Shown: positions 412-62,082, numbered from the stretch's first letter. The stretch: 64,000 bases of DNA from Steroidobacteraceae bacterium (GCA_044375575.1 JBILMJ010000010.1:2282-66281), one strand, 5' to 3'. A program made the numbers and translations. The notes: generated from the sequence alone by a model not told the origin.

Positions 412-414
412 TAT

Positions 415-7231: not shown

Positions 7232-7234
7232 TAT

Positions 7235-7924: not shown

Positions 7925-7944
7925 GCGTTTTCCCTTTTTTAATT

Positions 7945-8913: not shown

Positions 8914-8950
8914 CTAGTCTTCAGATTTTTATTCCGGTAGAAATATTTTT

Positions 8951-9958: not shown

Positions 9959-10010
9959 CGCTCTTTGCTCCTCAAAAATTGTCAGCTTATTGGTTGGCGC
10001 GAAGGAGGGG

Positions 10011-11054: not shown

Positions 11055-11075
11055 CAAGACTTAAGCCGTGATCAC

Positions 11076-13786: not shown

Positions 13787-13799
13787 GATGGATGACTCC

Positions 13800-42023: not shown

Positions 42024-43325
42024 CTAGTCTCGTATTCCGAGGGCAGACATCCACTTGGCAAACCGTCGCTGATCGAACGCATTGTCGTCGCGGAGGTCGT
42101 CGAAGAGTCGATCGATCTCCGCGCGCTTGACTCGATCGCGCTTGAGGCCGGCCAAGATCACCACCATACCCATGGCGGCCTGCTCCGCTGCCGCAGGGTC
42201 GGGAAACTCACCTCGACGTGCGGCCTCGACGAGGGTATCGATGACCGCGTTCATCTGCGCGGCAGACCAAGTCATCGAGCTCGACTGCCGCTCGACAGCG
42301 GACAAGGCCTCTCGGGTTTGCGTCAACGCCATCCGCAATGACGCCGCATCCCCGTGTGCCGCTTTCTGCAATGCCACGATCGCGCGGTCGAGATCCGAGC
42401 TTGCTGCCAAAGGCAACGCAGCCACAACGCGCTGCAATACCAGAAGATGAGCGTCCTGCCATCGCAGTGCACCAGGTTCAGTGCCGGTGGCACTTGCGCT
42501 GCCCCATGCCGTCATTCGCAGATCGCGGTGACAGGAGTGACACGCGAACACCCCAAAGTCGGGAATGGGGCCAAGTCGACCTGTTCCATGCTGTTCGATG
42601 AGCTTCAACTGCCGACGGGACGACGCGACGAGCCCGGCGATCCACAGAGACGGGGCATTCTTCCCGGAGTCACGAGGGTAATGTTCGCGCCCGCCGCTCG
42701 TACGCCATAACTCGCGATAGGTATCGAGTTCGAAGACGAGTCTCGGGTGACCCGCCGCCATCATGCGATGGGTGGCAAAGCGATCTTGATCCCCGACGTG
42801 GCATGCAAGACAGGTACCCGCGAGTACCTCGGGCCTTTCCAACGCACGCAGTCCGTTGGAAAGATTGTCACGCCGCGACACCTTCGGACTCTGATGGTGC
42901 GTCGCCAGCCATTTCTCTGCGCCACCATGACAGGCCTCGCAACCGATGCCATCTTCGAGCTGGAATCTTGCGCCGCGCTGTGCGGCAGGCACCGCATCGG
43001 CATGACACGCCAGACACGCCGCCTCCTGATGGGCCGGGCCAAGACCCATCCGTCGTACGATCTCTTTCGACTGCGCATTCAGCAGCGTCTTGTACGCCTT
43101 GGAATGCGGATCGAACTGCGACCACGTGGTGTACTCGTTCTGAAACGCACGGTCGTAAACTTTGAGCGGCTGACTCGACCCATGGCATAGCGACGACGCG
43201 CAGGTGGCGACGCCCTCGTGACGCAGAGTGGGTTCTTCCGCTGCGACCCCGACCGTCACCCCGAATGTCGATACGGCGGCCACACTTGCAGCGACCCAAC
43301 TCCAACAAAGCCGTCCCCATGTCAT
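42024..43325 (-). CDS. Periplasmic/secreted multiheme c-type cytochrome (5 heme-binding motifs) with helical C-terminal domain
   Basis: The ATG at 43325 forms an ATGA overlap with the upstream stop. The signal peptide is MTWGRLCWSWVAASVAAVSTFGVTVGVAAEE. The heme motifs are CASSLCH (CX4CH), CLACH, CEACH, CLACH and CHSCH. Confidence 0.8.
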   Translation of the reverse strand: MTWGRLCWSWVAASVAAVSTFGVTVGVAAEEPTLRHEGVATCASSLCHGSSQPLKVYDRAFQNEYTTWSQFDPHSKAYKTLLNAQSKEIVRRMGLGPAHQEAACLACHADAVPAAQRGARFQLEDGIGCEACHGGAEKWLATHHQSPKVSRRDNLSNGLRALERPEVLAGTCLACHVGDQDRFATHRMMAAGHPRLVFELDTYRELWRTSGGREHYPRDSGKNAPSLWIAGLVASSRRQLKLIEQHGTGRLGPIPDFGVFACHSCHRDLRMTAWGSASATGTEPGALRWQDAHLLVLQRVVAALPLAASSDLDRAIVALQKAAHGDAASLRMALTQTREALSAVERQSSSMTWSAAQMNAVIDTLVEAARRGEFPDPAAAEQAAMGMVVILAGLKRDRVKRAEIDRLFDDLRDDNAFDQRRFAKWMSALGIRD

Positions 43326-46300
43326 CGCGTGGCTCTCCCTTTGACCGATTGCACCGCGGGAGTGTCCTCGACGAACCAAGGCTCGCCCTCGCTGTCGAGA
43401 TAGAGGCGCTGCATTTCCTGCAGGTTGAAGGGCCTTGACCCCCTGCGACCGAACACCGCGACTTGACCGCCACTCTCATCGACCGCGCGATCGCGCTCGA
43501 GCGGTCGCGAAAGGCTGAGCGCGGGTAACTTCGTCGGCTTGTACGCGATCAATTCCGGACGAGGCGCCGGACTGAAGCCATAAAAATTCGGTTGGGTCGA
43601 CGGGCTCGTCAGCTGCACCACCTTCAAGCCCCCTTTTCCATCTGCGACGTACGCGAATAACGACGCGTTGGTCGAGGCGATCATCACGTCACGCGAGTCG
43701 ACGAGTCGACCATCGGCATTCCATGACCGAACGAGACGCGGCGCATGCGGACGCTCGACATCGATGATCGCCATGCCTTCACGACCATTGGCGACATACG
43801 CATAAGTCCGCGCGACCGTGAACCCACCCGCTTGGGCGAGCGTAACCATTGCTTGCGGTAACTTGCGCGGACGCGCGGGTGAAGTGACATCGATCACCTC
43901 GAATCCGCGAGCCGTCGTAACGAAAAGATAACGAAACTGCAGCGCCACGGCGCGGGGCGATTCGAACGGTATCTCCGCGACGATCTTCGGAGTGCTCGGT
44001 ACCGACAAATCGGAGATGACGACTGCGCGATCGGTGACGACATAGGCAAGGTTGCCGGCGATGGTGAGATGACGGGCACCAGTCAATTTGCCGTCGGGGT
44101 TCCAGGTCACGAAGCGCTTGAGAAAGTTGTTCCTGAACTCACCATCGGCGAGCGTATTGATGTCGACCAGCACGAGCCCTTCGACGGCGTCCGTGATCAC
44201 CGCAAAGTTGTAGATCGGCAGGAACGGCTGCTCCAGATTGTCCTTGCGCATGAGGTCACCCTCGTTGCGCGGCGGATGGACGGGCTGAGTGGTGGCCAAG
44301 GCCACGCAGGTGGCATTCGCGGTCTTGACCTGCGTATCGTGACCGAGCGGCGAAAACGGCGCGCTGATCAATTTTTGGCTGATGCCCTTATTGGCGATTC
44401 CCGCGGCATCGAGTACACGCAGACCGCGTTTTCCCTCGGCAGAAAACACGTATTCGCCACGAAGCTGTACGCAGCCGACCGCATCACCCTTGAGGGCACT
44501 CAGCCGCGGCAGCTCACGATCTCGACCGAGATGGTCCGAGTACCACTTCGGATATGCGTAACGATGCAGGTAACTCCCGATGACCGCCTGCGGTTCATCC
44601 CACTCGGTGACCTCGATCGCCGTGACCCCACCCTCGGTGCCCACCCACGCGTTGAGCCCGGCGAAATTCATGAACTGCGTGCCGAAGCCCAGTGTCTGCG
44701 CCATGATGGCGTTGTTGTCGCTTTCTTTGGCCAGATGACAGTCGCTGCAGGTCTTGGTTTCGGTCTTGCGCTCGGTATGCGGATAATGCGCGTTCATCGC
44801 CTGCGAGCTGTATCCCGATGCCGCGATCGGCGGCTGCTGAACGTAAATACGTTCCCGGTTCGCGTTCGTCGAAGACAAGACGAGCGCGGATGATGAGCGG
44901 ACCGGCGCCATCTTCCCGCCTTCGCTCGGGCCACGCCAGCCGAGCATGAAGACATCCTCACGCAACACCTGCGGGTTGTAGGTTGCAAAGTTTCGTGTCT
45001 CTCCGCCTTCGTAACGATGGCGGGACGTCTTGGCGTTCGCCTCGATCGGCAGATGGCATCCCCCGCAGCTCGTGGTCCACGGGGTGTGACAGGTGTAGCA
45101 CTCCATCTTGTCGTCGTTGTGGGCGAGCATTGCCCACGGAATATCGGGTCCCCACCGCTGATTCTTGGCGTCCTTGGCCATGGTCTTCGCGCGCGCCGCT
45201 TTCGCGTTGTAATGAGCACTACCCGGCGTGACGCTGTCCTTCACTTGTGACACTTGCCACTCGAGGCCAGGGGTCACGGCCGATCTTTGAACGAGCGTAT
45301 CGCCGCGCCATTCGAATCGCAGCTTTCCATCAGGGTTACGAATGCGCGCGAGATCAGTGCCCGATTGCGGTGCGGCTGGCCCTGAGGTGCGCAGCGTTGC
45401 CGTCGCTGCGGTGGTGCCATGACAGTCCTTGCAATCGATTTCGACAGCTGCGGCGACGGATCCATGCAAATAACCGTTACCGTGAGAGTCCTGCGCAAAA
45501 TGACAATCGACGCAGTGCATGCCTACGTCGACATGAATCGAGGACATCTGTACGGTTTTCTTCCACTTCAGAGGATCGTCGTTCTCGATGATCCGACCCT
45601 CAGCGTCGAGCAGATTGCCCTGGCGATCCCGCTTGTGTACCGCACGGAAGTTCCATCCGTGTCCGTGGTAATCGGCGAATTGCGTGTCTTTCAATTGCGG
45701 GTTGAGCTCGCTCACGCCCTTCAGGAACTCGAGGTCCGCCCACTTCCCTCGCGGTGCTGCACCCTCAGGATTTCGGTCGAGTACCTGCCGAATCTTCTCC
45801 GGCGTCGGGAACTGTTGTTCAGACGGCCACATGGCCGGAGCATCTGACTCGTAGTCCCACATCGTGTAGCCGAGGAACGAGTTGATGAACATGTTCGGCT
45901 GATGCATGTGGCAGATCATGCATTGGCTGGTGGGAATAGAACGGGTGAAGGCGTGGGTCAGCGGGTGCCCACTCTGATCTTTGGGAATCGTCGGATCCAA
46001 AGTTTGCGTCCGACCGTCATGCCCGAATTTCGCATAAGGGCCGGAGTGTCGTGGATCGCGATCGTTCGCATAGACGACATGGCAACTCGTGCAGCCTGAC
46101 GATCGGAAATCGCCAGGATTGTCGTTGGTACCCATAAACCACATCAGCGGATCGTTCAAACGGGTCTTGTGAATATTGAGCACCGGCACGGCGATTCTTC
46201 CGCCCGTGCCCGGCCCACGATTCGACTGCTTGATGTCCGGCCGCCCGGGCTCCTCGAGTCGTTGAATTTGACCTAGTGCGTTGGGTATCCCGGTTTCGGG

Positions 46301-47092
46301 AAACAGATTGGTGATGTTGCGACCGCCACGCTCGAACGCCCTGAAGATATCGGCGGGTGGCAAGTTTTCCCATCGAGGTAAGGGATAGATTCGCTCGACC
46401 AACTCATGGCGGTCGCGCTGCTCGGCGGTCGTCTTCGCGCCCTCGAGAATGGCGGCCTCTCCGTCCTTTGTGTAGCTCTCGCCGAGGATGTAATTTTTGA
46501 ACGGTAGCAGCCCATTGTTGTAGGCCGCGCCTCCCCAGAACATCGTCGCAGTCGCCATCAGACTGCGTTTGGCATCGGCGATCGTGCGCGCATGACATGC
46601 ACCGCAAGCATCATCGGCGGCGCGGTAGTCACCCGGGTTCACGAAGCGGATGAATTCGTTTGCTTCCTTATTCAGCAATGCATAGGTGCGCTCGGGATTG
46701 GCGCTCGACGGGTGATGCCAGGCAGATGGATACTTGGGCAACACGTGGGCGGCGTCTCGCGCAGCCGCATAATTGGGATCTCGCCGTTGAGTGTCCCGGT
46801 CGTTCGATCCAATCCATCGAATGCTCGCCGAACCACCGTGGCAGTCCGTGCAGCCGAGTACGACACCCGGATTGGCGTGCATCGTCGGTTGATCCGTCTT
46901 GGTGTGACAGTCGTTGCAGCCTGCACTTTTCGCCGCTGCCTCATCGAGTGTCTGTTTCGCGGGCGCCGGAGCCGCGGTCAAATACGTCCGCGCGACCGCC
47001 TTGAAACCTTCGGCCGAAGTGGCCACGTCGACGGATCCCGACAACAGAGCGAGACCTGATAGCGCGAACATTGCCGTGACGATTTTTTTCAT
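43322..47092 (-). CDS. Giant secreted decaheme c-type cytochrome fused to a C-terminal LVIVD-type repeat (beta-propeller-like) domain
   Basis: 1256 aa. The signal peptide is MKKIVTAMFALSGLALLSGSVDVATSAEG. Ten CxxCH motifs (CNDCH, CTDCH, CGACH, CTSCH, CMICH, CVDCH, CKDCH, CYTCH, CGGCH, CSDCH) lie in the first roughly 800 aa. The last roughly 400 aa carry repeats such as GLRVLDAAG, GLVLVDINT, AYVVTDRAVVISDLS, LFVTTARGFEVIDVTSP, AYVANGREGMAIIDVERP and AYVADGKGGLKVVQLTSP. Confidence 0.8.
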   Translation of the reverse strand: MKKIVTAMFALSGLALLSGSVDVATSAEGFKAVARTYLTAAPAPAKQTLDEAAAKSAGCNDCHTKTDQPTMHANPGVVLGCTDCHGGSASIRWIGSNDRDTQRRDPNYAAARDAAHVLPKYPSAWHHPSSANPERTYALLNKEANEFIRFVNPGDYRAADDACGACHARTIADAKRSLMATATMFWGGAAYNNGLLPFKNYILGESYTKDGEAAILEGAKTTAEQRDRHELVERIYPLPRWENLPPADIFRAFERGGRNITNLFPETGIPNALGQIQRLEEPGRPDIKQSNRGPGTGGRIAVPVLNIHKTRLNDPLMWFMGTNDNPGDFRSSGCTSCHVVYANDRDPRHSGPYAKFGHDGRTQTLDPTIPKDQSGHPLTHAFTRSIPTSQCMICHMHQPNMFINSFLGYTMWDYESDAPAMWPSEQQFPTPEKIRQVLDRNPEGAAPRGKWADLEFLKGVSELNPQLKDTQFADYHGHGWNFRAVHKRDRQGNLLDAEGRIIENDDPLKWKKTVQMSSIHVDVGMHCVDCHFAQDSHGNGYLHGSVAAAVEIDCKDCHGTTAATATLRTSGPAAPQSGTDLARIRNPDGKLRFEWRGDTLVQRSAVTPGLEWQVSQVKDSVTPGSAHYNAKAARAKTMAKDAKNQRWGPDIPWAMLAHNDDKMECYTCHTPWTTSCGGCHLPIEANAKTSRHRYEGGETRNFATYNPQVLREDVFMLGWRGPSEGGKMAPVRSSSALVLSSTNANRERIYVQQPPIAASGYSSQAMNAHYPHTERKTETKTCSDCHLAKESDNNAIMAQTLGFGTQFMNFAGLNAWVGTEGGVTAIEVTEWDEPQAVIGSYLHRYAYPKWYSDHLGRDRELPRLSALKGDAVGCVQLRGEYVFSAEGKRGLRVLDAAGIANKGISQKLISAPFSPLGHDTQVKTANATCVALATTQPVHPPRNEGDLMRKDNLEQPFLPIYNFAVITDAVEGLVLVDINTLADGEFRNNFLKRFVTWNPDGKLTGARHLTIAGNLAYVVTDRAVVISDLSVPSTPKIVAEIPFESPRAVALQFRYLFVTTARGFEVIDVTSPARPRKLPQAMVTLAQAGGFTVARTYAYVANGREGMAIIDVERPHAPRLVRSWNADGRLVDSRDVMIASTNASLFAYVADGKGGLKVVQLTSPSTQPNFYGFSPAPRPELIAYKPTKLPALSLSRPLERDRAVDESGGQVAVFGRRGSRPFNLQEMQRLYLDSEGEPWFVEDTPAVQSVKGRATR

Positions 47093-47102
47093 GGATGTCG
47101 GA

Positions 47103-48890
47103 TCAATAAGTCAGTACGAGGTTACCGAGCACGGCGTAGGACAAATCATCGGCAAAAAGGTCACGGTATCCCTCGCCGGAAACCAAGGTCGCAACCGACA
47201 GTCGCCCGACGACGTTTTGTATCGCAAGCGGTCGCCAAATCACCGAAATCGAGGCGTCGACGCCGATCTCCTTGTCGATGTCGCCCTGAGCGCGCGCCAC
47301 ACGCAAGGTGGCGGTGTCCACGAATTGCAGCCAGTTGATATTGGTGCTCACGCGGAGCGTGGGTGTCAGGTCGATGTCAGCTCCGACCCCGATAAGTGCC
47401 AAACCCGGATTGGCGAAGTTGGACTGACCAAACTCTTTAGATGAGCGAAGCGAATTCAGCATTCCATTTCGACCGGACAGCGATACACGCCCACCGCCGA
47501 TCAGCGGCACCGGCTCGCGTATCCAGAAACTGGTATCAGCTCCCGCAAAGAGCGGGTTTTCAAAAATGGCATCGAAGCCTTCACCTCGCCCGTCGAACGG
47601 GTCCGAGTCACCCGATCCCCATGCCACGGAACCACGGAGACGCACCCACGAGTAGTCCTTCGAGAGCTCTGCGGCGAAGAACGAGGCGCGGATTCTTTGC
47701 GGCCGATCGACGAATGTCCCGCGCTCCGCTTCGCCGATCGCATAGTAAGCCGAGGTGGTGAGATTCAGTCCGCCCAGATACCCGTCACCCGAGACGCCGA
47801 GATACGTGACGTCGTAGTCGCCAGACCTTTCGATACCGATCGACGAGGGTCTCTGGATGATGCCGTTGTCGTCGTATTGAATCTGCCCGCCTTCGCGATT
47901 CCGGTTGTGAATCGCAGTGACTTGCGTGAAGAAACCGGGTGTCGGCCAGTCTTGCACGTACAGATTGGCCGCAAACACGTCGTCGTCTCGGAATGACGCA
48001 AGTCCACGAGAGAAGACGTCGTTCAATCCGCTGTTGGTGTCTTTGTCGAGTCGTCGGAACCAGGCCAGGTTGTACTGATAGCGATTGCTCGAGCGGATGC
48101 CAAACAACCGAGCCCCAAACATCGCATCGTTCAACAAAAAACCTCGAAAGTCGGATGTGAACGGCTGGATGCCTATACGGATACTGTCGAAGTCGTAGTT
48201 CGGCGATACGTTTCGCAGATGGCGGTCGACGAAGGCGGCCTGCAATCCGACTGCCGAGTCGTAGCGCACCGTTGAGGCATCTGCGGGCGCCCGCAGCAAG
48301 CCGCGCTCGTCCGCCGAGACTCGGGTGAGATTGAACGCAGGAGTGAAGCGGAACTCCCAGTCGGGCGGCTTGAACGTGGTGTTGCCCTGGTACAGGACCG
48401 TTTCGATCGCGAAAGTCTGTGCCCAGATCTCGGTTTTCGGACTTCCGAAGGTGTCCGTGGATCCGGGTCGCGCCGTCACGGGGCCGCCGACCGGCAACGG
48501 AAACGAACGTGGCTCGAACACGGTATCGGACGTCGCAATGAAGGCGAGATACCAGTCTTCGCCAAACATCGGGCGATCACCTTTGAGCCGATTGTACCCG
48601 TGGTACGGATCGAGCAAATTTTCTTTGATGCCGATCGCTTCGACGATACGCCATCGGTCCAGAAACCCCTGCAGCGAGCCGATTTCCTCCATCGGTGCCG
48701 GCGATATTCGTGAGGGATCACAAGGATCTGGCTCATACGGGATGACCGGCACCGTCGGGCTTCGCCGACCGGACTCGATCGGTGCCGGAGATGGGCATGG
48801 CTCCTCCGCCCTTACCGAGCCGATGAGCACCGCGCCGAGTAGAGCCGGAAGCCAAGCGCGATCAAAGACCACTGCAGGGCTCCTGTTCAT
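47103..48890 (-). CDS. Outer-membrane beta-barrel protein candidate (porin partner of the cytochromes)
   Basis: The ATG at 48890 gives a signal peptide (MNRSPAVVFDRAWLPALLGAVLIGSVRAEEP). The sequence is long, has alternating polarity and is Gly/Tyr/Asp/Asn-rich. The C-terminus ...VLGNLVLTY ends in an aromatic residue, as expected for a BAM substrate. No family was identified by eye. Confidence 0.5.
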   Translation of the reverse strand: MNRSPAVVFDRAWLPALLGAVLIGSVRAEEPCPSPAPIESGRRSPTVPVIPYEPDPCDPSRISPAPMEEIGSLQGFLDRWRIVEAIGIKENLLDPYHGYNRLKGDRPMFGEDWYLAFIATSDTVFEPRSFPLPVGGPVTARPGSTDTFGSPKTEIWAQTFAIETVLYQGNTTFKPPDWEFRFTPAFNLTRVSADERGLLRAPADASTVRYDSAVGLQAAFVDRHLRNVSPNYDFDSIRIGIQPFTSDFRGFLLNDAMFGARLFGIRSSNRYQYNLAWFRRLDKDTNSGLNDVFSRGLASFRDDDVFAANLYVQDWPTPGFFTQVTAIHNRNREGGQIQYDDNGIIQRPSSIGIERSGDYDVTYLGVSGDGYLGGLNLTTSAYYAIGEAERGTFVDRPQRIRASFFAAELSKDYSWVRLRGSVAWGSGDSDPFDGRGEGFDAIFENPLFAGADTSFWIREPVPLIGGGRVSLSGRNGMLNSLRSSKEFGQSNFANPGLALIGVGADIDLTPTLRVSTNINWLQFVDTATLRVARAQGDIDKEIGVDASISVIWRPLAIQNVVGRLSVATLVSGEGYRDLFADDLSYAVLGNLVLTY

Positions 48891-50862
48891 TCGAGTCGAG
48901 GAACGGTGCTTGCGGACAACTGACGTATCGCAATCGCGCGCCGTTCGGCACAAGCTGATCCGAACGTCGGCTGAGCGGCGCATTATTTGGCGCAGCGCTT
49001 CCCGTCAATCCCGAACGCGCCACCCCGAGAAACGCGACCATATCGTCCTGATCGACGCCGTCACCGGAGACACCGACCGCACCGACGAGTTGGTCGCCTC
49101 GGTAGATCGGTACCGCACCCGGGAAAATCTGTATGCCATTCGCCAAAATACGAGCAGCTCCCGTCACCGCAAATCCGCGATCGAATCCGCCCACGCCGCC
49201 ACACTGGCTCGGTGTATCCGTCGTGAGCCCACGTACGAACGCTACATGCTGAATGACGGCGTTATGTACGAGGTCCATCTGCAATCCCGTATTGAGAGGA
49301 CTCCACTGCCCTGGGGCACGCGAGAGCGGACCAAATGGATTTCCGTCCACGCCGTCGGGATAGTTCGGGCGGGCGAGATTGCCGATCGCACGCGCAGAAA
49401 ATGCCGTGGCACCATCGGCAAGTACATTCGGAAGTCCGAGAAAACGTCGGAGCGCGGTGACGTATTGCCCCAACGATTCCTCGCGCAAACGAACCAGGGT
49501 GCGATCGAGGTAAACCGCTGGCGGCAGCGCATTCAATCGATCGGCAGCCGTCGTCGAGGAGAGAAACGCCGCACCGCGAGCCTTTTGCACCGAGACGTCG
49601 ATGCCGAACACCGGTGCATCCCGTGACCGAACGAGCCCTAAGATCTCTCCCTGCGAATCGACCACCGAGATCGACACCCGTGCAGGTGTGTCGAGTGGGC
49701 GACGAATCTGCGCCCGACTTCGATTCGCCACGCGCAGCGCGCTCGACAAAATCGCGCGCACCTCGTTGGCCGTCAGTGCCGAGGCGCCGTCCGTTCCCGA
49801 GCGAGGACGATAACGCTCGTTTCCGACCGTATCGACGAGCACGAAAGCATCGAGTCCCGGGTAGTCCTGACTATCCGCCCGAATTCCGGAACGCGCCTGA
49901 CCGAATGCAGTCCCTGCGCGAACCGACATACCGTTATAGCCCGACACCTCAACGAGCTGCCCTGCGCTACCCTTCAAAGATTCGAAGGCGGGCGGCGCGT
50001 CGATCCGCGAGCGAAGATCTTCAGCGCGGATATCGCTAAATCGTAAGGTCTTGCCATCGGCGGTGATGCGGTCTGCTCGACGATCTTCAGGCGCGGCCAA
50101 TGCACCCGCTGCCGCAAACGCCACCGCCTCGTCGGTATCACGGTCGATGTCGAGCACGTTTTGATCGATTCCGTACACCGCATCGACGACGACACCCACG
50201 CCGCCCACCGGTGTCCCCGATCGATACAACGGGAAACCGCCGGGATCGCCCGCAAGACCGAGTGGCGATCGTTTGGGACCCGCATCGGCCTCAACAGACG
50301 CCTGACGCATGGAGACGTCGGAGCACGGAAGTTGGCTGAACTGAACACCGAACAACGGTCCGCTCGGCGTCAATAACTCGCCCGGATTGAAATGCGACTG
50401 GATGATTTGGCTCGCCGTACGCGTGCTGAACGCATTGCCTTCGCTCGAGAGGTAAGCGCCGGTCACGGCCTTGGCAATTGCTGCCATCGTCGCAGGAATC
50501 ACCTCGACGTTCTCGAAGCCACCGCTCACCGACAGTGCGGATACATCCGGAGTCCGCATCGTTACGTTTTCGAGTGCGCCGGTCATACGAAAGACGGCCA
50601 GCACGTTTCCGACACGATCGACTACGGCAATGGTCGCCTTGACACCCCTCGCCTGCGCCTCGGCCACACCGCGAGAAATAACTGTTTCGACATCATTGAT
50701 CGTTAGGAACGTGCCGGCGTTCGCGCAGCTTCCATCACAAAAGGCGGAGCCTGAGGGAGATGTCGCAGATCCATTGACCGTCGTAGTTGGCGTGCCGGAA
50801 CCCCCGCCACCGCAGGATACGAGCAACGCTGCGCATATCGACGTCAACGTCAAGCGTCTCAT
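48862..50862 (-). CDS. Lipoprotein with two GlcG/DUF336 (HbpS-like, heme/tetrapyrrole-binding) domains
   Basis: The ATG at 50862 forms an ATGA overlap with the upstream stop. The lipobox is AALLVSCGGGGSG. Domain 1 reads GVKATIAVVDRVGNVLAVFRM...GGFPLYRSGTPVGGVGV. Domain 2 reads RVSISVVDSQGEILGLVRS...SVQKARGAAF...GAVPIYRGDQLVGAVGVSGDGVDQDD. Confidence 0.65.
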   Translation of the reverse strand: MRRLTLTSICAALLVSCGGGGSGTPTTTVNGSATSPSGSAFCDGSCANAGTFLTINDVETVISRGVAEAQARGVKATIAVVDRVGNVLAVFRMTGALENVTMRTPDVSALSVSGGFENVEVIPATMAAIAKAVTGAYLSSEGNAFSTRTASQIIQSHFNPGELLTPSGPLFGVQFSQLPCSDVSMRQASVEADAGPKRSPLGLAGDPGGFPLYRSGTPVGGVGVVVDAVYGIDQNVLDIDRDTDEAVAFAAAGALAAPEDRRADRITADGKTLRFSDIRAEDLRSRIDAPPAFESLKGSAGQLVEVSGYNGMSVRAGTAFGQARSGIRADSQDYPGLDAFVLVDTVGNERYRPRSGTDGASALTANEVRAILSSALRVANRSRAQIRRPLDTPARVSISVVDSQGEILGLVRSRDAPVFGIDVSVQKARGAAFLSSTTAADRLNALPPAVYLDRTLVRLREESLGQYVTALRRFLGLPNVLADGATAFSARAIGNLARPNYPDGVDGNPFGPLSRAPGQWSPLNTGLQMDLVHNAVIQHVAFVRGLTTDTPSQCGGVGGFDRGFAVTGAARILANGIQIFPGAVPIYRGDQLVGAVGVSGDGVDQDDMVAFLGVARSGLTGSAAPNNAPLSRRSDQLVPNGARLRYVSCPQAPFLDSNEQEPCSGL

Positions 50863-52553
50863 TCTCGTACCGTCGCCTGTCGAATCCATTTTGGCTCGCG
50901 CTCATCGTGGTACACGTGACACGTCGCGCAGGGACTCGCGATCTTTTGCTCGCCACCTTCCGCGCCGGTCTCACCACCATGACAGTCGCGGCAGACCTTG
51001 ATCGATGGCATCAACACGTCGCTCGATAACTTAGACTCTTGTGCTGCATGACAGGTCTCACAGGTCGCCTGTCCCGATGCGTGAGCTGCGTGGTCGAAGC
51101 GCGCTTTCGGCATGAAATGCTGGGTGAGTTTGACCGGAGCGACGATCCACGCGGAGTCGTTCGTCGTCCCCGTTCGAGTGACCGCATGGCACTCGGCACA
51201 CGCTCTGCGCTCGAAAAGATCGGTCGCGACCTGGTTGGCACGCTGCTTGGCATTGCCTAAAAGCCGTGCACGCGCAGCGGCACTCAAGGAGGCCCCCGGC
51301 GGCGTCACCCCATCGACTACCGCCAAAGAATCACTGTATCCGCTCAGATAACGGCGACTGTAATGATCGACCAGCGTCAGCAAGACGAGCTTCGGATCAC
51401 CGTGTGGCACTTGGCGCTGCGGTTCTGCCGGATCGAACCCTAATGAGTGACACGTCCCACAGTGTCGCTCCATCGTAATCTTTTCGAAGCCGCGCCCACT
51501 CTCGTTCGACACATGACAATCGGCGCAGCCCATCACGACTTGGCCCTGCGGAGCCTTGATCCCCTTCGGGTCGAGATGTGCAGCGTGTGTGAATACGAGA
51601 TCGGACCGCTCCACCAGCGCCGCTCCACCAAGACGAGCGCGCGTGACGCGCCAATCGGGTGCCGTCAGCAGGCTGATTTGAAACTCCGGATGCTGCAATA
51701 CGAAGTCGGTGACCGGCATCGTTTTCTTCCCGATGCCGTGATCGGCGGGCTCCGAATGGCAATCCGTACAGAGTCGAGTGTCGCGTTGTACGAGGTTCGA
51801 TGGCTGATCGTGCTCGACGTGACAACTCGTACAACGCGCCGCCGTCATGTCCGCCACCGCAGGGTGATTGGCTGGAACGTGCTGATGCAATGTGGCAGCG
51901 TGGCACTCTAGACACTGCTCATTTCGGACGCGTCGAAAGGACTGTACGTGACAGGCCTCGCATTCACCCTCGAGGTTACCGTGCGCAGAATGCAGCGCAC
52001 CCGAACTCCACTGCTGATCACTCGGTAGCACACTCGCCCGTAACCACGAAGCCGAGGCATCGCCCTTCGCGACGAATAACCACGGCAAGATCAGCCCCAG
52101 CAGCAACGTGACCGTGATGCCGATCCACGCCCACGGTCGCCTGCGCCAACCCACCTCTTCGAGGGTCGTTGCGAATTTCGGCATCGGTGCGTCGTCTGCA
52201 ACCGTCGACTCTCGGGCGTCGCGCTCCACCGAGATCGCCGCATCAACCTCCAACGGTACCTCGAGCACCTTGATCAGCATCGGCCCGAGGCTGACTTCAT
52301 CTCCGACCTTCAGGTTCGCACTGCGACAGAGTCGTCCGTTGACCTCCGCTTGGGCGGGAGGGATGCAGGACAACAACAATCCGCCGTCAGATCGCGCAAA
52401 CCGCGCATGCTGCAACGCAATGCGGGGATCGTTGCACTGAATCGACTGATCGGTCGCGCGTCCGAATCCGATCGACTCGGCATCGACGATTCGGTCACGG
52501 GTCGCCTTCACGCCGGACGACCCCATCTCTATTGTTCGAATCAGGAGACGCAT
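50859..52553 (-). CDS. FHA domain - single TM - periplasmic decaheme c-type cytochrome
   Basis: The ATG at 52553 gives MRLLIRTIEMGSSG. The FHA-like block is IGFGRATDQSIQCNDPRIALQHARFARSDGGLLL...VNGRLCRSANLKVGDEVSLGPMLIKV. The TM segment is WAWIGITVTLLLGLILPWLFVA. It then has ten CxxCH motifs (CEACH, CLECH, CTSCH, CTDCH, CADCH, CGTCH, CAECH, CETCH, CRDCH, CATCH), with c3/c7-like FxHxxH contexts. Confidence 0.8.
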   Translation of the reverse strand: MRLLIRTIEMGSSGVKATRDRIVDAESIGFGRATDQSIQCNDPRIALQHARFARSDGGLLLSCIPPAQAEVNGRLCRSANLKVGDEVSLGPMLIKVLEVPLEVDAAISVERDARESTVADDAPMPKFATTLEEVGWRRRPWAWIGITVTLLLGLILPWLFVAKGDASASWLRASVLPSDQQWSSGALHSAHGNLEGECEACHVQSFRRVRNEQCLECHAATLHQHVPANHPAVADMTAARCTSCHVEHDQPSNLVQRDTRLCTDCHSEPADHGIGKKTMPVTDFVLQHPEFQISLLTAPDWRVTRARLGGAALVERSDLVFTHAAHLDPKGIKAPQGQVVMGCADCHVSNESGRGFEKITMERHCGTCHSLGFDPAEPQRQVPHGDPKLVLLTLVDHYSRRYLSGYSDSLAVVDGVTPPGASLSAAARARLLGNAKQRANQVATDLFERRACAECHAVTRTGTTNDSAWIVAPVKLTQHFMPKARFDHAAHASGQATCETCHAAQESKLSSDVLMPSIKVCRDCHGGETGAEGGEQKIASPCATCHVYHDEREPKWIRQATVRE

Positions 52554-52557
52554 GGAT

Positions 52558-53427
52558 TCACCAGTAGAGGAACACGCTGACCACATGTGCGATCAACGTA
52601 CCGAGCAGCGCCAAGGTCACCGGGACGTGGACGTACAGCCAGATTTCGAGCCAACCGCGGATCTGGGCATCGCGACACAGTCGACGCAGATGATTTCGAC
52701 GCGTGGCGATCACGCTGAGCAGATCGCCGATTCGCCGCGTCGCGTCACCATCGGTACTGCGGGCAAGCTCGTCCCCGAGCCACGTGAGTAACGCCGCTTG
52801 CTCAGCATTGGAAACCCGTGTCGAATCGCCGGCCGCGTTGGGCAAGTCGATCATGGAAAGATCGCGTCCCCGTAAAATAGCGATGGCACTTCCGCCGAGG
52901 CGCGTTTCCTCACGATTGGAGCGCAGCGCATCACCGAAACGGCGCGGCATGTCGCGGGCGATACGAAATGCGCGCTGATCGAGGTCGTCGATTTCTTCGA
53001 GGAGCAGATCGGGCTTGCGGCCTGCCCGGTTAGCCGACATCAACTTCGGATAGCGTAGATATACGATGAGCCCGAAGATGCCGCTTGCGATCACGATCAA
53101 CATGAGCGCGTAGCACAGCGTATGCAGATTCCAACCGAACTGGAATCCGGTGTGGAGCGTCACCACGACGATGAGTGCCAAACCAAGATAGACATGCGCA
53201 CTCGTCCATCCGCGCAGCGTTCCGAGCGAAGACGAGTAACTGCGCTTTCGAACGCCGAGCGCCGTCAACCAAAGAATGAGCGCAGCGCCAACTCCGCCGA
53301 GCGTATAGCCCAACCATGTTCCACCGTTCGGCGGCGACATCGGGTCGTGCCACGCATACGCCACGACCGAAGCGAAGCACAATCCGAGGGCGATTTTCAG
53401 ATAGCGTCGGCTGGCGTATTCAAGCAT
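52558..53427 (-). CDS. Integral membrane protein, predicted di-heme b-type cytochrome (two H-x13-H helices)
   Basis: The ATG at 53427 (MLEYASRRYLKIALGL...) lies 14 nt after the upstream stop. There are about 5 TM segments. TM3 is SAHVYLGLALIVVVTLH and the last TM is YVHVPVTLALLGTLIAHV. Each carries two His residues exactly 13 residues apart. A cytoplasmic loop of about 130 aa separates TM4 and TM5. Confidence 0.55.
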   Translation of the reverse strand: MLEYASRRYLKIALGLCFASVVAYAWHDPMSPPNGGTWLGYTLGGVGAALILWLTALGVRKRSYSSSLGTLRGWTSAHVYLGLALIVVVTLHTGFQFGWNLHTLCYALMLIVIASGIFGLIVYLRYPKLMSANRAGRKPDLLLEEIDDLDQRAFRIARDMPRRFGDALRSNREETRLGGSAIAILRGRDLSMIDLPNAAGDSTRVSNAEQAALLTWLGDELARSTDGDATRRIGDLLSVIATRRNHLRRLCRDAQIRGWLEIWLYVHVPVTLALLGTLIAHVVSVFLYW

Positions 53428-53441
53428 CGACTCGTGCACGT

Positions 53442-55892
53442 TCAGAACCTCGACGCTTCCTGCTGCACGAACGTCACGAACTCCTCGGGGCTCACGCGCA
53501 ATGCCGCGCCGGTCGGACACGCCCGTACACACGCCGGACCGCCGTCCTGCCCCTTGCACATATCGCACTTGACGGCTTTTTTGACGGTCTTTGGCGCTCC
53601 GTGTGTATCGCCTTGAACGTGGTGCTGCTCGCGACCGAGCCCACGAACCTCGCCGAATACATCGCCCTTTTCACCGCCGAACAAAAGCCATGACACGAGA
53701 GAAGGCGACTCGGTGGGCGGCCCCGCCATCTGGATCACCCCGTAGGGGCAATTGCGCTCGCAGTTTCCACAACCGATGCAGTTGTCGCCGACGAATACTT
53801 CACCGTTCGGCGAGCGCCGAATGGCATCGGGTGGACAGTCCTTCATGCAATGCGGGTCTTCGCAGTGCCGACAGGACGTTGGTACATGAACGTTCGCAAA
53901 GGTTGGCCCTGCGGCTCGATCGAGGCGAGACGTCCCGCCATGCGTGGCGGCACAAGCCCTTTCACAGTTATCGCATCCGATGCACAAGGCTTCGTCGATC
54001 AACAGTACATCGGTGGCTTCGCCAAGACCTTGCTTCAGCAAAAACGAAATGAGTTCGCCTGCATTATCTTGTCCCTGCAGCCGGGTGTTACTCGCCACGC
54101 GCTGTCGTACGGTTTCCTCAAGCTCGGCACGCAAAGCCGGATTCTGTCGTAACAATTCGGCGAACGTTTCGGCATCGAGGCTGATCGTTTCGGTCGCGAC
54201 CGTTGCTCGTACCGTCGCACTACGACGGGTGCCCCCCATCAACCCCATCTCGCCGACGTAGTTGCCGGCGGCAACGTATGACATGACGATCTCGCGACCG
54301 CCGAGGGCTCGCAGCACGGCGAGCGAACCGCTGCGTACGAGATGGAGCGTATCGGCCTCGTCACCCTCGCTGAATAAAACCTGTCCGGCCTTGTAACGAT
54401 TCAATTTCGATTTGGCGGCGATAGGCAGCAAGTCCGCCGTCTTCGCCTGCGGCGCAAATCCGCTCTGGATGGCGCGTACGATGAAGGTCTGATCGATCAC
54501 GAGACGCGCGGCATCGACCGAGTTCAAGAGCTTCAAGATATCCCGTCGAGGCGTCTCGATCAGCACGCACTCCTTGCCGGCGATGACTGTCGCCGTACGA
54601 CGACGACCGGACAGCAGCCCCATCTCGCCGAAAAACTGACCCGCCACCAAAGGAATTCGGACGTTCGGGCGATTGTCGTCGATCTGTATCTCGACGCCGC
54701 CGGCAAAGACGGTGAAGAATGAGTTGGTGTAGTCGTTACGCTTGAAGACGATGTCACCAGCATTCAGCACGTGGATCGTGCTCCCGAGCATCAGCTCGCG
54801 GAACATCAGCGGATTCACCTCAGTGAACAGAGGAATCTGCCGCTGCATCGCCTGCAGAGTGTCGGTCACCGACCGGTGCCCGGGAATATTCGAAAACTTC
54901 GCCGCAAGCAGCGGCTCGTCGGCGGGCGCTATCGAAATCCCGCGGATGAATTCCACGACTTCGTATCCCTGATTCATCGCCTGTTTGATGAGGGGATAGC
55001 CTCCCAATGCACCAATCACATAGAGCCCAGGAACGTTCGACTCATAAGACGACGACAACACAGGGAGCGATGCGGCATCACTCGACGGAAACTCGATCCC
55101 GCAGGACTCGATGAACTTTCGCGGTGGCGTGGCGCCGAGTCGAGCAATGATTCGATCGCAGGGCAATTGCATTTCGCCGGTGGATGTATTCAGCGTCAAC
55201 GAATACGGTTTTTCTCCACCCGGGCTCTCTGCCAACGACACACACTGGGTCGAATAGAGACAGGCAACTTTTTCGGCTTCAATATGTTTGAGAATGAGCG
55301 CGAGGTTGCCGTCCTTGCACCGCGAGAACTCACCCGACCGATTGACGATATACACCGTGTTTTGCTTCGAGAGCGCGACGGCATTCTCGATCGCGGCGTC
55401 ACCTGCGCCCACCACGACGATGGTTTCGTTTTTGTATTCATCCGGATCGTCGAGCGAGTACTGCACGCAGGGCAGCCCTTCGCCGGGGATACCGAGCAGG
55501 CGAGGATTTCCTTGAAGGCCGATGGCGAGCACGACGTTTTCGGCCGAGACGGCACCGCCGTCACGCAAGCGAAGTTGGAAGTCCCCGCGAGCGCCCGTTA
55601 TCGCGACCACCTCGGCGCCATGGCGGATATCGACCGCATGCTCCTCGAGACCGCTCGCCCATTCCTCCAGAATTCGTTCGCGGCTACCCGCCGCGAAACG
55701 CATCGAACTGCGCAGCGGAAGTACGTTGGGCTCGGCCATGACGTGCTTGTTCTTCTGGTATCGATGGATCGTGTCCGCATGCGCGGCGGACTTTTCGAGC
55801 AGGACGTGCGAGACCCCCGTTTCGGCGGCGCGCGCAGCAGCGCTGAGGCCGCCCGGCCCCGAGCCGACCACGGCGACGGTAACTTTGGTCAT
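53442..55892 (-). CDS. Fusion protein: FAD/NAD(P)-dependent pyridine-nucleotide-disulfide-type oxidoreductase, 2 cyclic-nucleotide-binding domains and a 4x[4Fe-4S] ferredoxin module
   Basis: The ATG at 55892 gives MTKVTVAVVGSGPGGLSAAARAAE (first dinucleotide fold). TIVVVGAGDAAIENA is the second. The cNMP blocks are FFGEMGLLSGRRRTATVIA and YVGEMGLMGGTRRSATVRA. The Cys clusters are CIGCDNCERAC, CRHCEDPHCMKDCP, CIGCGNCERNCP and CDMCKGQDGGPACVRACP. Confidence 0.8.
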   Translation of the reverse strand: MTKVTVAVVGSGPGGLSAAARAAETGVSHVLLEKSAAHADTIHRYQKNKHVMAEPNVLPLRSSMRFAAGSRERILEEWASGLEEHAVDIRHGAEVVAITGARGDFQLRLRDGGAVSAENVVLAIGLQGNPRLLGIPGEGLPCVQYSLDDPDEYKNETIVVVGAGDAAIENAVALSKQNTVYIVNRSGEFSRCKDGNLALILKHIEAEKVACLYSTQCVSLAESPGGEKPYSLTLNTSTGEMQLPCDRIIARLGATPPRKFIESCGIEFPSSDAASLPVLSSSYESNVPGLYVIGALGGYPLIKQAMNQGYEVVEFIRGISIAPADEPLLAAKFSNIPGHRSVTDTLQAMQRQIPLFTEVNPLMFRELMLGSTIHVLNAGDIVFKRNDYTNSFFTVFAGGVEIQIDDNRPNVRIPLVAGQFFGEMGLLSGRRRTATVIAGKECVLIETPRRDILKLLNSVDAARLVIDQTFIVRAIQSGFAPQAKTADLLPIAAKSKLNRYKAGQVLFSEGDEADTLHLVRSGSLAVLRALGGREIVMSYVAAGNYVGEMGLMGGTRRSATVRATVATETISLDAETFAELLRQNPALRAELEETVRQRVASNTRLQGQDNAGELISFLLKQGLGEATDVLLIDEALCIGCDNCERACAATHGGTSRLDRAAGPTFANVHVPTSCRHCEDPHCMKDCPPDAIRRSPNGEVFVGDNCIGCGNCERNCPYGVIQMAGPPTESPSLVSWLLFGGEKGDVFGEVRGLGREQHHVQGDTHGAPKTVKKAVKCDMCKGQDGGPACVRACPTGAALRVSPEEFVTFVQQEASRF

Positions 55893-56058: not shown

Positions 56059-57402
56059 GTGGTGCGACCGACCATGATCCCCACCCGTTGCGGCGACCGG
56101 TTGAGCGCGGCGCTGGCGGTGCTCGCGCCCAGTTGCCCTGCGGCGGAAGTGAGCCGGATAGCGGCGTTGATCGACGAGGCGATGTCGGGCTCCGATCGGG
56201 CCTATCACACGCTGCCGCATGCCTTGATGGTGGCTGAGTCAGACGACTCGATCGAAATCCTGATCGGCTTGTTCCATGACATCGTGCAACTCGAGGTCGA
56301 CGCCGGTATCGCACCGTGTCTCGAGAGCGTCCTCGATGACTTCAGGGTGATACGCGCGGAAGAATCCTCTGGCGATCTCGATTCGCCGCGCAGCCGTCAC
56401 CTCTCGGAAGTGCTTCACACCGCCGGCCGAGTCCCTGATCGATGGACGGCAACCGTGCAGTCAATTTTCCGCATCGCTCCGGGAGGCGCGCTTAAGAAGA
56501 TTAACGGCCATAACGAGTTCCTCAGCGCATTGGTTGCAGCTCGATTACTGGAGCCTTGGCTCGATGACATTACGATGATCAGTCTCATCGCAGGCATCGA
56601 AACCTCGATTCCTTTTCGGAGTGACCCTGAGGGCTCGTTGCAGGCACTTCGCGACTCGATACGACGCCTCGATCAAGAAAATAGCCTAGGGCTCGGCACT
56701 GCGCAGCTCGATACGCTGATGCACCGAGCAGTTCGGATCGCTAATCGAGACGTGCAGAGTTTTGGTGAGACCGATCTCGCGGCATTTCTCGGTGATACGT
56801 TCACGTTATTGATGGAATCGTGTCCGTCACGAGGCTCGGGGAGCTCAGTGCAGATCGACACCTATCGTCGAGCACTGCAAAAAATGACGGCGTTCTTGTC
56901 GTCGATTTCTCCTTCCAGCGTCTTTCGCCGCTTTGGCGACGAGCCCACGCTCACCACACATCACGCGCGACAACTTCGCACTGCTCATAACCTTGAGGTC
57001 GTCGCCCTCGTGCTCTCCGCAAGACTGCTATCGACCCTATTGCTGGAGGCGGAACTCGGTGACGAGAAACCTGCCCTCGCGCTGACGCCATCGCCATCGA
57101 TACACAGATCGACATGGCCCGAGGAGATCGACGCCAAAGCCCGCGAGTTATTGTCGAGCGAAGCGGGTTGGCGCTGGCGGGCGACCGTCTCCTCCTCGGT
57201 GGTGGAGGTCGACATGCTCGCCCGATGGAGCAGCGAAGCGCTGATCCGAAAGGCAAAAGAAGTTCAGGCGCTCGTGGCGCAGCTCGATGTCACCGGAGCA
57301 TCGGATGCCCGTAGAGCATTGCGAGCGCTTATCCTGAGCCATTACTCGCAACACCATCGCGAGTGGGCCAAGGAGGTCGCCCGAGGCTTGGACGATTTAT
57401 AA
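56059..57402 (+). CDS. Hypothetical protein with HD-superfamily phosphohydrolase-like N-terminus
   Basis: 447 aa. DRAYHTLPHALMV...LIGLFHDIVQ resembles the H...HD motif arrangement of HD-domain proteins. The remaining roughly 250 aa are unassigned. GTG start, with an ATG alternative at 56074. Confidence 0.35.
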   Translation: MVRPTMIPTRCGDRLSAALAVLAPSCPAAEVSRIAALIDEAMSGSDRAYHTLPHALMVAESDDSIEILIGLFHDIVQLEVDAGIAPCLESVLDDFRVIRAEESSGDLDSPRSRHLSEVLHTAGRVPDRWTATVQSIFRIAPGGALKKINGHNEFLSALVAARLLEPWLDDITMISLIAGIETSIPFRSDPEGSLQALRDSIRRLDQENSLGLGTAQLDTLMHRAVRIANRDVQSFGETDLAAFLGDTFTLLMESCPSRGSGSSVQIDTYRRALQKMTAFLSSISPSSVFRRFGDEPTLTTHHARQLRTAHNLEVVALVLSARLLSTLLLEAELGDEKPALALTPSPSIHRSTWPEEIDAKARELLSSEAGWRWRATVSSSVVEVDMLARWSSEALIRKAKEVQALVAQLDVTGASDARRALRALILSHYSQHHREWAKEVARGLDDL

Positions 57403-61362: not shown

Positions 61363-61387
61363 CAGTTCATTACTCTTCGGAGACTCG

Positions 61388-62059
61388 TCACGCAGGGAAC
61401 TTGAGTGCACCGGAAATGCGGATCCCGGCCCCATCCACCGCGTACTGCTTGTTGATGAAAATCAGGATCGACGTCATCGCCTCGGCGGCTGCAGAGTTGG
61501 CCAGGGCACCGCCGTGGATTCCTCGAAGACCACAGGCCTGTACCAGACGAATGACGGACTCGCGCGCTGCCTTGTCATCTCCGAACACGAGCACGTCGCA
61601 ATCGACCGTCGCATCAGATGCAAGCTTGAACGCTGCGACATTGTGAAATGCCGATACGACACGTACGCCCTCGCCGAGTATTTTTTGGGCGCGCACAGCG
61701 GCACTACCCTCGAGCGGCAGTTGCACTCGCATGACCTTCGGCGGTACCAGCGGGACGGTGGTGTCGACAACGATCTTGCCCGCGACGTGCGGACTGATGT
61801 CACCCAGCGTCGACTCTTGCGAGGCAAAAGGCACGGCAAGGATGACGATATCTCCCTGAGCGGCCGCCTCCACGTTGGTGGCAGCACGAACATCGGTCTT
61901 GCACTCTGCGGTGAGCAGCTCCGCCGTCGCCTGCGCCTTGAGTACATCGCGCGATCCGATGATCACTCGCTCCCCTGCTTTGGCAAGCCGTCGAGCGAGT
62001 GCAGAACCCAAATCGCCTGTTCCGCCGATGACCGCAATGCATTGACCCTGATCAGACAT
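61388..62059 (-). CDS. npdG: NADPH-dependent F420 reductase (Npd family)
   Basis: The ATG at 62059 gives MSDQGQCIAVIGGTGDLGSALARRLAKAGERVIIGSRD (Rossmann fold). It is about 223 aa, the typical Npd length and pattern. The upstream 58 codons of the track ORF are rejected. Confidence 0.7.
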   Translation of the reverse strand: MSDQGQCIAVIGGTGDLGSALARRLAKAGERVIIGSRDVLKAQATAELLTAECKTDVRAATNVEAAAQGDIVILAVPFASQESTLGDISPHVAGKIVVDTTVPLVPPKVMRVQLPLEGSAAVRAQKILGEGVRVVSAFHNVAAFKLASDATVDCDVLVFGDDKAARESVIRLVQACGLRGIHGGALANSAAAEAMTSILIFINKQYAVDGAGIRISGALKFPA

Positions 62060-62082
62060 GCCGAACTCCCGAACCAAGACCG

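Follow-up and report, generated by a model that had tools for sequence, protein, structure and literature searches.

A forkhead-associated domain anchored to a decaheme cytochrome in a Steroidobacteraceae bacterium: a probable periplasm-facing subunit of a split bc-type electron-transfer module

Except in Shewanella and Geobacter, it is poorly understood how a periplasmic heme wire is linked to the redox pool of the cytoplasm. A 64,000-nucleotide stretch of DNA from Steroidobacteraceae bacterium (GCA_044375575.1 JBILMJ010000010.1:2282-66281), referred to here in its entirety as the window, raises this question through a single gene, whose product joins a forkhead-associated (FHA) domain to ten c-type heme sites through one transmembrane (TM) helix. 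What is an FHA domain doing on such a cytochrome? The original prediction was that it recruits a phosphorylated partner and so ties Ser/Thr-kinase signaling to a periplasmic electron wire, in an architecture described as unusual. Our analysis located the gene where it had been placed, with the FHA domain, the one TM helix, and all ten CxxCH motifs, and the features on which the argument depends are as follows.

50859..52553, minus strand: gene for the FHA / one-TM / decaheme c-type cytochrome, 564 amino acids (aa)
52221..52553, minus strand: FHA-fold domain, codons 1-111, predicted to be cytoplasmic (from Pfam, AlphaFold2, Foldseek, and substitution rates)
52065..52136, minus strand: single TM helix, codons 140-163, with WRRRPW on the cytoplasmic side (from a hydropathy scan and the model)
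50916..51962, minus strand: ten CxxCH heme c sites, codons 198-546 (from motifs and Pfam)

The longest open reading frame (ORF) for the FHA-decaheme protein spans 50859..52586 on the minus strand and gives a 575-aa form, in which the originally assigned start at 52553 is M12. Public gene callers also start the gene at 52553 (564 aa). This ATG lies 4 nucleotides (nt) past the stop codon of the upstream gene (tga-atcc-ATG), and all homologues have the same start, with MR(I/L)LIR as the N terminus. The ratio of nonsynonymous to synonymous substitution rates (dN/dS) for the FHA codons was 0.08 in comparison with one related locus (L002) and 0.13 in comparison with another (L003), near the 0.05 to 0.06 obtained for the heme domain. 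These values signify purifying selection, and the FHA segment is therefore translated. A start farther downstream, which would have left the FHA segment out of the protein, does not apply here, given the 4-nt gap, the dN/dS values, and conservation from residue 1.

In the Pfam domain analysis, PF00498 matched the 575-aa form over residues 41-101, with an E value of 1.3e-5 and a score of 26.0 bits (cutoff, 20.7). In an AlphaFold2 model built with 28 homologues, residues 1-111 form an 11-strand beta sandwich with a predicted local distance difference test (pLDDT) score of ~90. Searching the PDB with Foldseek returned 46 matches at E<=1e-3, including the FHA domains of GarA, OdhI, Ki67, Rv1747, EmbR, and FhaA; GarA was the best structural match, with target-normalized TM-scores of 0.72 to 0.78 across its chains. 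The assignment of the N-terminal ~100 residues to the FHA fold is thus borne out by both the profile match and the structure prediction.

Further inspection of the domain revealed that its phosphopeptide site is incomplete. The G31-R32 pair, which carries the phosphate-contacting Arg of the GR motif in the beta3-beta4 loop, and the structural H49 are present. GarA keeps all of the canonical FHA residues, whereas the window protein is without the Ser and the Asn: in a phmmer alignment of the two, IALQH of the window protein falls on VSRRH and PPAQ-A on SLNGT. The phosphate-contacting Ser of SxxH is Ala in this alignment, and the Asn of S-x-N-G-T, which contacts the peptide backbone from the beta6-beta7 loop, is absent from PPAQA, where a gap of one residue falls. 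When the protein and canonical FHA domains were put into one multiple alignment, the register was the same. The FHA pattern first read from the sequence holds for the Arg of GxGR and for the His, but not for the NG, since N72-G73 is a later, nondiagnostic vNG; of the Arg, Ser, and His contacts on which the prediction leaned, R32 and H49 are kept and the Ser is lost.

The same pattern was found across the family. Among 60 close members, the Arg of GR is present in 56 and the His of SxxH in 52, compared with 3 for the Ser and 1 for the Asn of S-x-NGT. Among 143 full-length representatives clustered at 50% identity, the counts were 131 for Arg, 115 for His, 11 for Ser or Thr, and 0 for Asn. Judged from these alignments, the FHA site of the whole family is degenerate, two of the three phosphopeptide contacts having been lost. 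In Rad53 FHA1, loss of the Ser and of the Asn reportedly abolished phosphothreonine (pThr) binding on mutagenesis.

The FHA domain is followed by one hydrophobic helix, placed at residues 144-162 by the hydropathy scan and at residues 140-163 by the AlphaFold2 model, and preceded by WRRRPW. The single TM helix expected between the FHA and heme domains was thus recovered by both methods. Heme c is attached in the periplasm; with periplasmic heme c, one TM helix, and an RRR stretch on the N-terminal side of that helix, the FHA domain is predicted to be cytoplasmic. The topology originally proposed, with the FHA domain inside the cell and the hemes in the periplasm, is supported on the same grounds.

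The CxxCH motifs lie at residues 198, 214, 241, 262, 343, 365, 452, 498, 521, and 542, and all ten are invariant in 28 homologues. Ten more His residues are invariant or nearly so (H191, H225, H248, H288, H323, H326, H384, H488, H491, and H549) and are candidate distal ligands. When the residues of the same protein were shuffled 20000 times, the mean number of CxxCH motifs was 0.046 and the maximum was 3, so the ten sites predicted at the outset lie far above chance. PF14522, PF14537, PF09699, and PF02085 scored above their cutoffs, as cytochrome c7, cytochrome c3, and paired-CXXCH matches.

The FHA-decaheme gene is the third gene of a tightly packed cluster on the minus strand. The other six genes, in the order of transcription, are as follows.

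53442..55892, minus strand: FAD/NAD(P)H oxidoreductase with two cyclic nucleotide monophosphate (cNMP)-binding domains and four [4Fe-4S]-type Cys clusters, cytoplasmic (from Pfam, NCBIfam, and motifs)
52558..53439, minus strand: 293-aa five-helix membrane protein, a probable diheme cytochrome b (from four invariant His residues, weak Pfam matches, and synteny)
48862..50862, minus strand: lipoprotein with three HbpS-like stretches (PF03928, heme binding/degrading; from Pfam and synteny)
47103..48872, minus strand: 589-aa protein with no Pfam match and a C terminus ending in LVLTY, a putative outer-membrane beta-barrel
43322..47092, minus strand: 1256-aa secreted cytochrome with 10 CxxCH motifs and C-terminal LVIVD repeats
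42024..43379, minus strand: 451-aa cytochrome c554-like protein with 4 CxxCH motifs and one CX5CH, the last conserved gene of the cluster

The ORF of the first gene extends to 55943 from a TTG, with the likely ATG at 55892 on the basis of start context; the phosphate-binding cassettes of both of its cNMP domains are intact, and it ends 2 nt upstream of the 293-aa gene. The likely ATG of the lipoprotein gene overlaps the TGA of the decaheme cytochrome (ATGA), its longest ORF beginning at 50889. When all stop-free segments of at least 100 aa in the window were considered, 24 of the 25 CxxCH motifs fell in the three cytochrome genes of the cluster. Scans for promoters and terminators over 41.8-56.3 kb did no better than shuffles and say nothing on operon structure.

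Conservation of the cluster was assessed by tblastn against 68 loci, which came from a contig scan with 11 closer sequences and are biased to Gammaproteobacteria and Sphingomonadales. The window belongs to a freshwater member of the Steroidobacteraceae, as a metagenome-assembled genome (MAG) from Lake Mendota is 92-96% identical across the cluster. All seven genes occur in order wherever the loci of Steroidobacteraceae, Nevskiaceae, and 'Acidibacter' MAGs are of sufficient length; Sphingomonadales keep the first three genes, which the other four adjoin in inverted orientation. One locus (L076) has the three-gene set without the outer-membrane genes. The FHA-cytochrome is the fastest-evolving member, at 30% identity where the LVIVD cytochrome has 58%. 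The pair formed by the b-type protein and the FHA-cytochrome was kept in every locus examined, and the b-type gene is the immediate upstream neighbor wherever the locus reaches that far.

The domains that are separate in the window are joined in a Blastocatellia MAG (L061, 6975..12817, plus strand). One ORF there combines cNMP and 4Fe-4S domains with the four-His TM domain, and the next combines a canonical FHA domain, a TM helix, 7 CxxCH motifs, a second TM helix, a Fer4 domain, and an FAD/NAD(P)H oxidoreductase. These fusions place the FHA, flavin/Fe-S, b-type, and heme c domains in one assembly and put the FHA and FAD domains on the same side of the membrane.

The 293-aa protein encoded directly upstream is the immediate candidate for an electron-carrying partner. 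Its syntenic homologues from Gammaproteobacteria, Alphaproteobacteria, Rokubacteria, and three Acidobacteriota loci (four phyla in all) were aligned, and only 15 columns were invariant. Four of these hold His in an H-x13-H arrangement, with H82 and H96 forming the pair in TM3 and H271 and H285 the pair in TM5. The N terminus of the protein is placed in the cytoplasm by the positive-inside rule and by L061, in which its counterpart is fused at the N-terminal end to a cytoplasmic Fe-S domain. On this topology, H82 and H271 lie close to the cytoplasmic side of the membrane, and H96 and H285 close to its periplasmic side. This geometry fits two stacked bis-His hemes. Twelve homologues gave weak Pfam matches only, to PF01292 (cytochrome b561; 7/12, best E value 3.4e-6), PF01794 (ferric-reductase TM; 4/12), and DUF4405 (3/12). 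A cytoplasmic insert of ~120 residues was modeled at a pLDDT of >90. Taken together, these features suggest that the neighbor is probably a diheme cytochrome b with putative heme-binding sites at the four His residues.

On balance, we consider it probable that the FHA-decaheme protein serves as the subunit facing the periplasm in a split 'bc-type' electron-transfer module of the inner membrane, with phospho-independent FHA docking. The 293-aa protein would hold two hemes b, one near each membrane face, and through these, electrons would pass between the first heme c and the cytoplasmic Fe-S/flavin protein or, in genomes without that protein, the quinone pool. From the decaheme domain they would move on to the outer-membrane module and most likely out to an extracellular acceptor; outward flow is the probable direction because passage from an extracellular donor to NAD(P)+ would oppose both redox and membrane potential. 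The cNMP domains may gate the cytoplasmic input. The FHA domain itself is most likely a phospho-independent docking or assembly domain on the cytoplasmic face rather than a receiver of Ser/Thr-kinase signals. The suggestion that this domain docks or anchors a partner, called protein A or B originally and possibly the two upstream gene products, is plausible in a phospho-independent form, whereas the phosphorylation part of it is not supported.

Several observations weigh against this reading. The direction of electron flow is argued from thermodynamics alone. Three loci (L069-L071) have no FAD/Fe-S gene next to the cytochrome pair, so that the FAD/Fe-S protein is not an obligatory partner. The window copy of the 293-aa protein matches PF01292 at E=0.014 and 15.6 bits against a cutoff of 30.1, and its TM region is poorly modeled (pLDDT of 45-65). 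Foldseek against the PDB with this low-confidence model gave nothing significant, and a PDB profile search with the 293-aa protein returned only coiled-coil noise from the cytoplasmic insert. The Arg kept in 131 of the 143 FHA representatives could still hold a phosphate or an acidic group. Fully canonical FHA motifs are found in Acidobacteriota relatives, fused in L061 and as separate genes in L040, and phospho-recognition may therefore be ancestral.

The layout recalls several known inner-membrane systems. In CbcL/MtoC/MtrH (and CbcBA) of Geobacter and relatives, periplasmic multiheme c is paired with diheme b where an extracellular electron-transfer chain starts or ends (PMC6295460). CbcL carries both domains on a single polypeptide, which has six TM helices and lacks a cytoplasmic domain. 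Here the c and b parts are encoded by separate genes; the c subunit is anchored by a helix of its own and bears an FHA domain, and the two are usually accompanied by a cytoplasmic FAD/Fe-S/cNMP subunit. The window b protein reaches PF01292 only below threshold, and the one-polypeptide arrangement of CbcL is not seen; by analogy, the module would work like a split CbcL without being a member of that family. The NapC/NirT proteins (CymA, NrfH) likewise have an N-terminal single TM anchor followed by periplasmic c hemes and act as inner-membrane relays. Unlike the window protein, however, they have four hemes and no cytoplasmic domain, and quinol is oxidized directly by the heme protein; no NrfH/NapC profile was among the NCBIfam matches of the window cytochrome at E<=0.01. 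In the Tmc and Hmc complexes of Desulfovibrio, periplasmic multiheme c, membrane cytochrome b, and cytoplasmic Fe-S proteins together form an inner-membrane conduit. These resemble the module in layout but are members of other protein families and are not known to carry FHA, cNMP, or FAD domains; only weak NCBIfam echoes were seen, of QrcA for the cytochrome and of HmcB and DsrO for the Fe-S protein.

It is possible that the module is instead a CbcL/CymA-like quinol oxidase or quinone reductase, in which the b protein would exchange electrons with the quinone pool, the decaheme protein would be the wire, and the FAD, cNMP, and Fe-S parts would be accessory or regulatory. This explanation overlaps the split bc-type module favored above and differs from it solely in the cytoplasmic-side partner. 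It would account for L069-L071, which have the b protein, the FHA-cytochrome, and the outer-membrane module without the FAD/Fe-S gene, and it is in keeping with the weak matches to PF01292, whose members generally exchange electrons with quinones. Precedents come from CbcL itself, a nine-heme c domain fused to a HydC/FdnI-like diheme b domain (PMC6295460), and from a preprint on a Ferrigenium counterpart, in which quinone reduction is proposed (bioRxiv 10.64898/2026.01.22.701106). Against this, in most loci the Fe-S gene and the b gene are closely packed, in L061 the Fe-S and b domains are fused, and no quinone-site motif was identified.

A more specific form of the split module does without quinones altogether: NAD(P)H would feed a cyclic-nucleotide-gated conduit consisting, in this order, of FAD, four [4Fe-4S] clusters, two hemes b, and ten hemes c and leading to the outer-membrane cytochromes, with the degenerate FHA domain clamping the soluble reductase to the membrane complex. 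We put this forward tentatively and regard it as rather doubtful in its full extent. The step from a flavin to two hemes b is the logic of the NADPH oxidases, which the proposed module shares without being a member of that family. If such a conduit exists, it would be a bacterial multisubunit analogue of that logic for extracellular electron transfer and a new class of inner-membrane entry or exit point for that process, and it would provide a further example of the FHA fold reused as a phospho-independent coupling domain.

Two side observations touch on the cyclic-nucleotide aspect. In L072, the locus of a distant homologue, a CHASE2-adenylate/guanylate cyclase and a small cNMP-binding protein are encoded just upstream of the three-gene set (2993..5429, plus strand), neighbors that fit cyclic-nucleotide control of the module. 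In the window, a 447-aa ORF with no Pfam match (56059..57402, plus strand) is divergent from the cluster, and its position is kept in L002, L018, L019, and L023. An H...HD-like motif in this ORF (YHTLPH, GLFHDIVQ) suggests an HD phosphohydrolase, which could relate to cyclic-nucleotide turnover.

A further alternative, which we consider unlikely, is that the FHA domain is a structural scaffold for ring formation or oligomerization with no specific cytoplasmic redox partner, as in YscD of the type III secretion system. In YscD, an FHA-like domain in the cytoplasm is joined by one TM helix to a periplasmic domain, the same domain order and topology as the window protein, and YscD-type domains also are without the pThr contacts. 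Many family members score PF16697 (Yop-YscD_cpl) instead of or besides PF00498. The window protein, however, has no PF16697 match at E<=0.01. In addition, the FHA domain is missing from orthologues in Rokubacteria, Bryobacteraceae, and one Acidobacteriota locus, in which just a short N terminus precedes the anchor; the cytochrome can thus fold and insert without an FHA domain, and the domain is dispensable for those steps. None of the FHA domains of YscD, GarA, and OdhI is known to be attached to a redox protein, as the window FHA domain is. GarA also binds enzymes without phosphorylation, a behavior akin to the phospho-independent docking that we favor. Whether the FHA domain is present showed no correlation with whether the FAD/Fe-S gene is there or with how long the cytoplasmic insert of the b protein is. 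A post-FHA strand (DAAISVER) was compared with RIDLSYFK at the N terminus of the FHA-less orthologues, and the resemblance was too weak to claim.

Improbable, too, is the mechanism originally put forward, in which the FHA domain binds a pThr on a partner, so that the periplasmic heme wire is gated or positioned by a pair of enzymes, a Ser/Thr kinase and a phosphatase. It can draw on a genuine FHA fold, on the GR Arg and the His kept in 131 and 115 of the 143 representatives, and on the Blastocatellia relative, in which a canonical FHA domain (GR..SRTH..SNGT; 54 bits) is fused to a multiheme cytochrome. Two canonical FHA proteins, one with two copies of the domain, are also encoded just downstream of the FHA-less cytochrome orthologue in the Acidobacteriota MAG locus L040 (12108..13668, plus strand), an arrangement that hints at a split form of the same FHA-cytochrome association. 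The residues that would be needed speak against it: the Ser is Ala in the window protein, a Ser or Thr is found at that position in only 11 of the 143 representatives, the Asn is found in none, and both are required for pThr binding if the reported Rad53 FHA1 mutagenesis is a guide.

The surroundings of the gene point in the same direction. Pfam detected no Pkinase or PP2C domain in those window ORFs that were scanned, and none was seen among the annotated neighbors of five diverse homologues. A crude regular-expression scan of 1.16 Mb (the window and 76 related loci) for a Hanks catalytic loop or a PP2C motif found none; it reached ~10 kb on each side of each homologue, and kinases may lie elsewhere in the genome. 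The proposed link to Ser/Thr-kinase signaling through a phosphorylated partner is thus not supported, either by the FHA site with its lost Ser and Asn contacts or by these scans. Finally, an annotation artifact, whether an untranslated FHA segment or a chance FHA match, finds some footing in the modest Pfam score (26 bits) and is already refuted by conservation of the segment from residue 1 in at least 143 representative clusters, the dN/dS of its codons (0.08-0.13), the high-confidence modeled fold with its specific Foldseek matches, and a start only 4 nt beyond the upstream stop.

The description of the architecture as unusual proved to be an overstatement, as a database survey revealed a large conserved family that is already in print. 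A profile search of 1.84 billion representatives gave 1873 proteins with E values of 1e-30 or below. The alignments of the top 150 (E<1e-139) start, in nearly every case, at profile position 1 and so include the FHA domain. At least 143 full-length clusters at 50% identity carry the FHA/TM/decaheme architecture; exactly ten CxxCH motifs were found in 146 of 148 representatives, whose median identity to the window protein was 34%. Members include proteins from the cultured Sphingomonas sp. KC8 (WP_010126407.1), Usitatibacter rugosus, and Usitatibacter palustris, as well as from Casimicrobiaceae and Betaproteobacteria MAGs, Steroidobacteraceae, and a Dormibacteraeota MAG. IMG labels some of them 'pSer/pThr/pTyr-binding forkhead associated (FHA) protein'.

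Two earlier descriptions were found. In a study of Gallionellaceae, MMseqs2 cluster 403, 'Forkhead-associated protein', is listed with 10 heme motifs in 27 of 87 iron-oxidizer genomes, as a table entry without discussion (Hoover et al. 2023; PMC10734462, Table 1). Like the window protein, cluster 403 has an FHA annotation and ten CXXCH motifs; it comes from another bacterial class, and homology is surmised from the architecture. [quoted passage not shown] The window shows the same three-gene set, a likeness based on architecture and neighbors. NHC has nine hemes where the window protein has ten, and it is flanked by nirK and an SHP-like gene, whereas the window gene is flanked by the HbpS/barrel/LVIVD-cytochrome module. 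The Ferrigenium authors report no redox motif in the membrane protein, in contrast to the four invariant His residues in the family of the window counterpart, and this four-His signature is therefore a new lead. Cluster look-ups and a betaproteobacterial profile search led to Usitatibacter, Casimicrobiaceae, and Sphingomonas, with no entry under a Gallionellaceae name among the 120 proteins listed. The window gene is an ordinary member of a widespread, recently described, functionally uncharacterized family.

The family is widespread in freshwater and soil Proteobacteria and has been noted in iron oxidizers, and what the present analysis adds is the four-His diheme-b signature, an FHA site that is degenerate throughout the family, the evidence from domain fusions, and the cultured carriers. 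The signature in the partner, the degeneracy, and the carriers (KC8, U. rugosus, and U. palustris) make the question raised by this locus testable.

With regard to the downstream module, the gene for the HbpS-like lipoprotein sits between the decaheme and putative barrel genes, a position that is kept in gammaproteobacterial and alphaproteobacterial loci, and a more distant match to this lipoprotein was found in a Phycisphaerales locus. No description of the module was found in the literature on LVIVD multiheme proteins or on extracellular electron transfer in Steroidobacteraceae.

Elsewhere in the window, we noted a low-GC island at 1..15743 (45-51% against ~60%) that encodes a phosphoenolpyruvate mutase/cytidylyltransferase fusion, a thiamine pyrophosphate-dependent enzyme resembling phosphonopyruvate decarboxylase, methyltransferases, and an Asp/Asn beta-hydroxylase. 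The island adjoins two Maf-like (MptE-like) genes and the flagellin and FliD genes, and its products may glycosylate flagellin with a glycan that bears a phosphonate. Two flagellar proteins are unusually long: the hook-associated protein FlgK (18252..21464, minus strand; 1070 aa) and the hook protein FlgE (25273..28626, minus strand; 1117 aa). Coenzyme F420 biosynthesis genes were found at 58447..62233 on the minus strand, where a 995-aa fusion of CofC with two radical-SAM (CofG/CofH-like) domains is followed by an F420-dependent NADP oxidoreductase.

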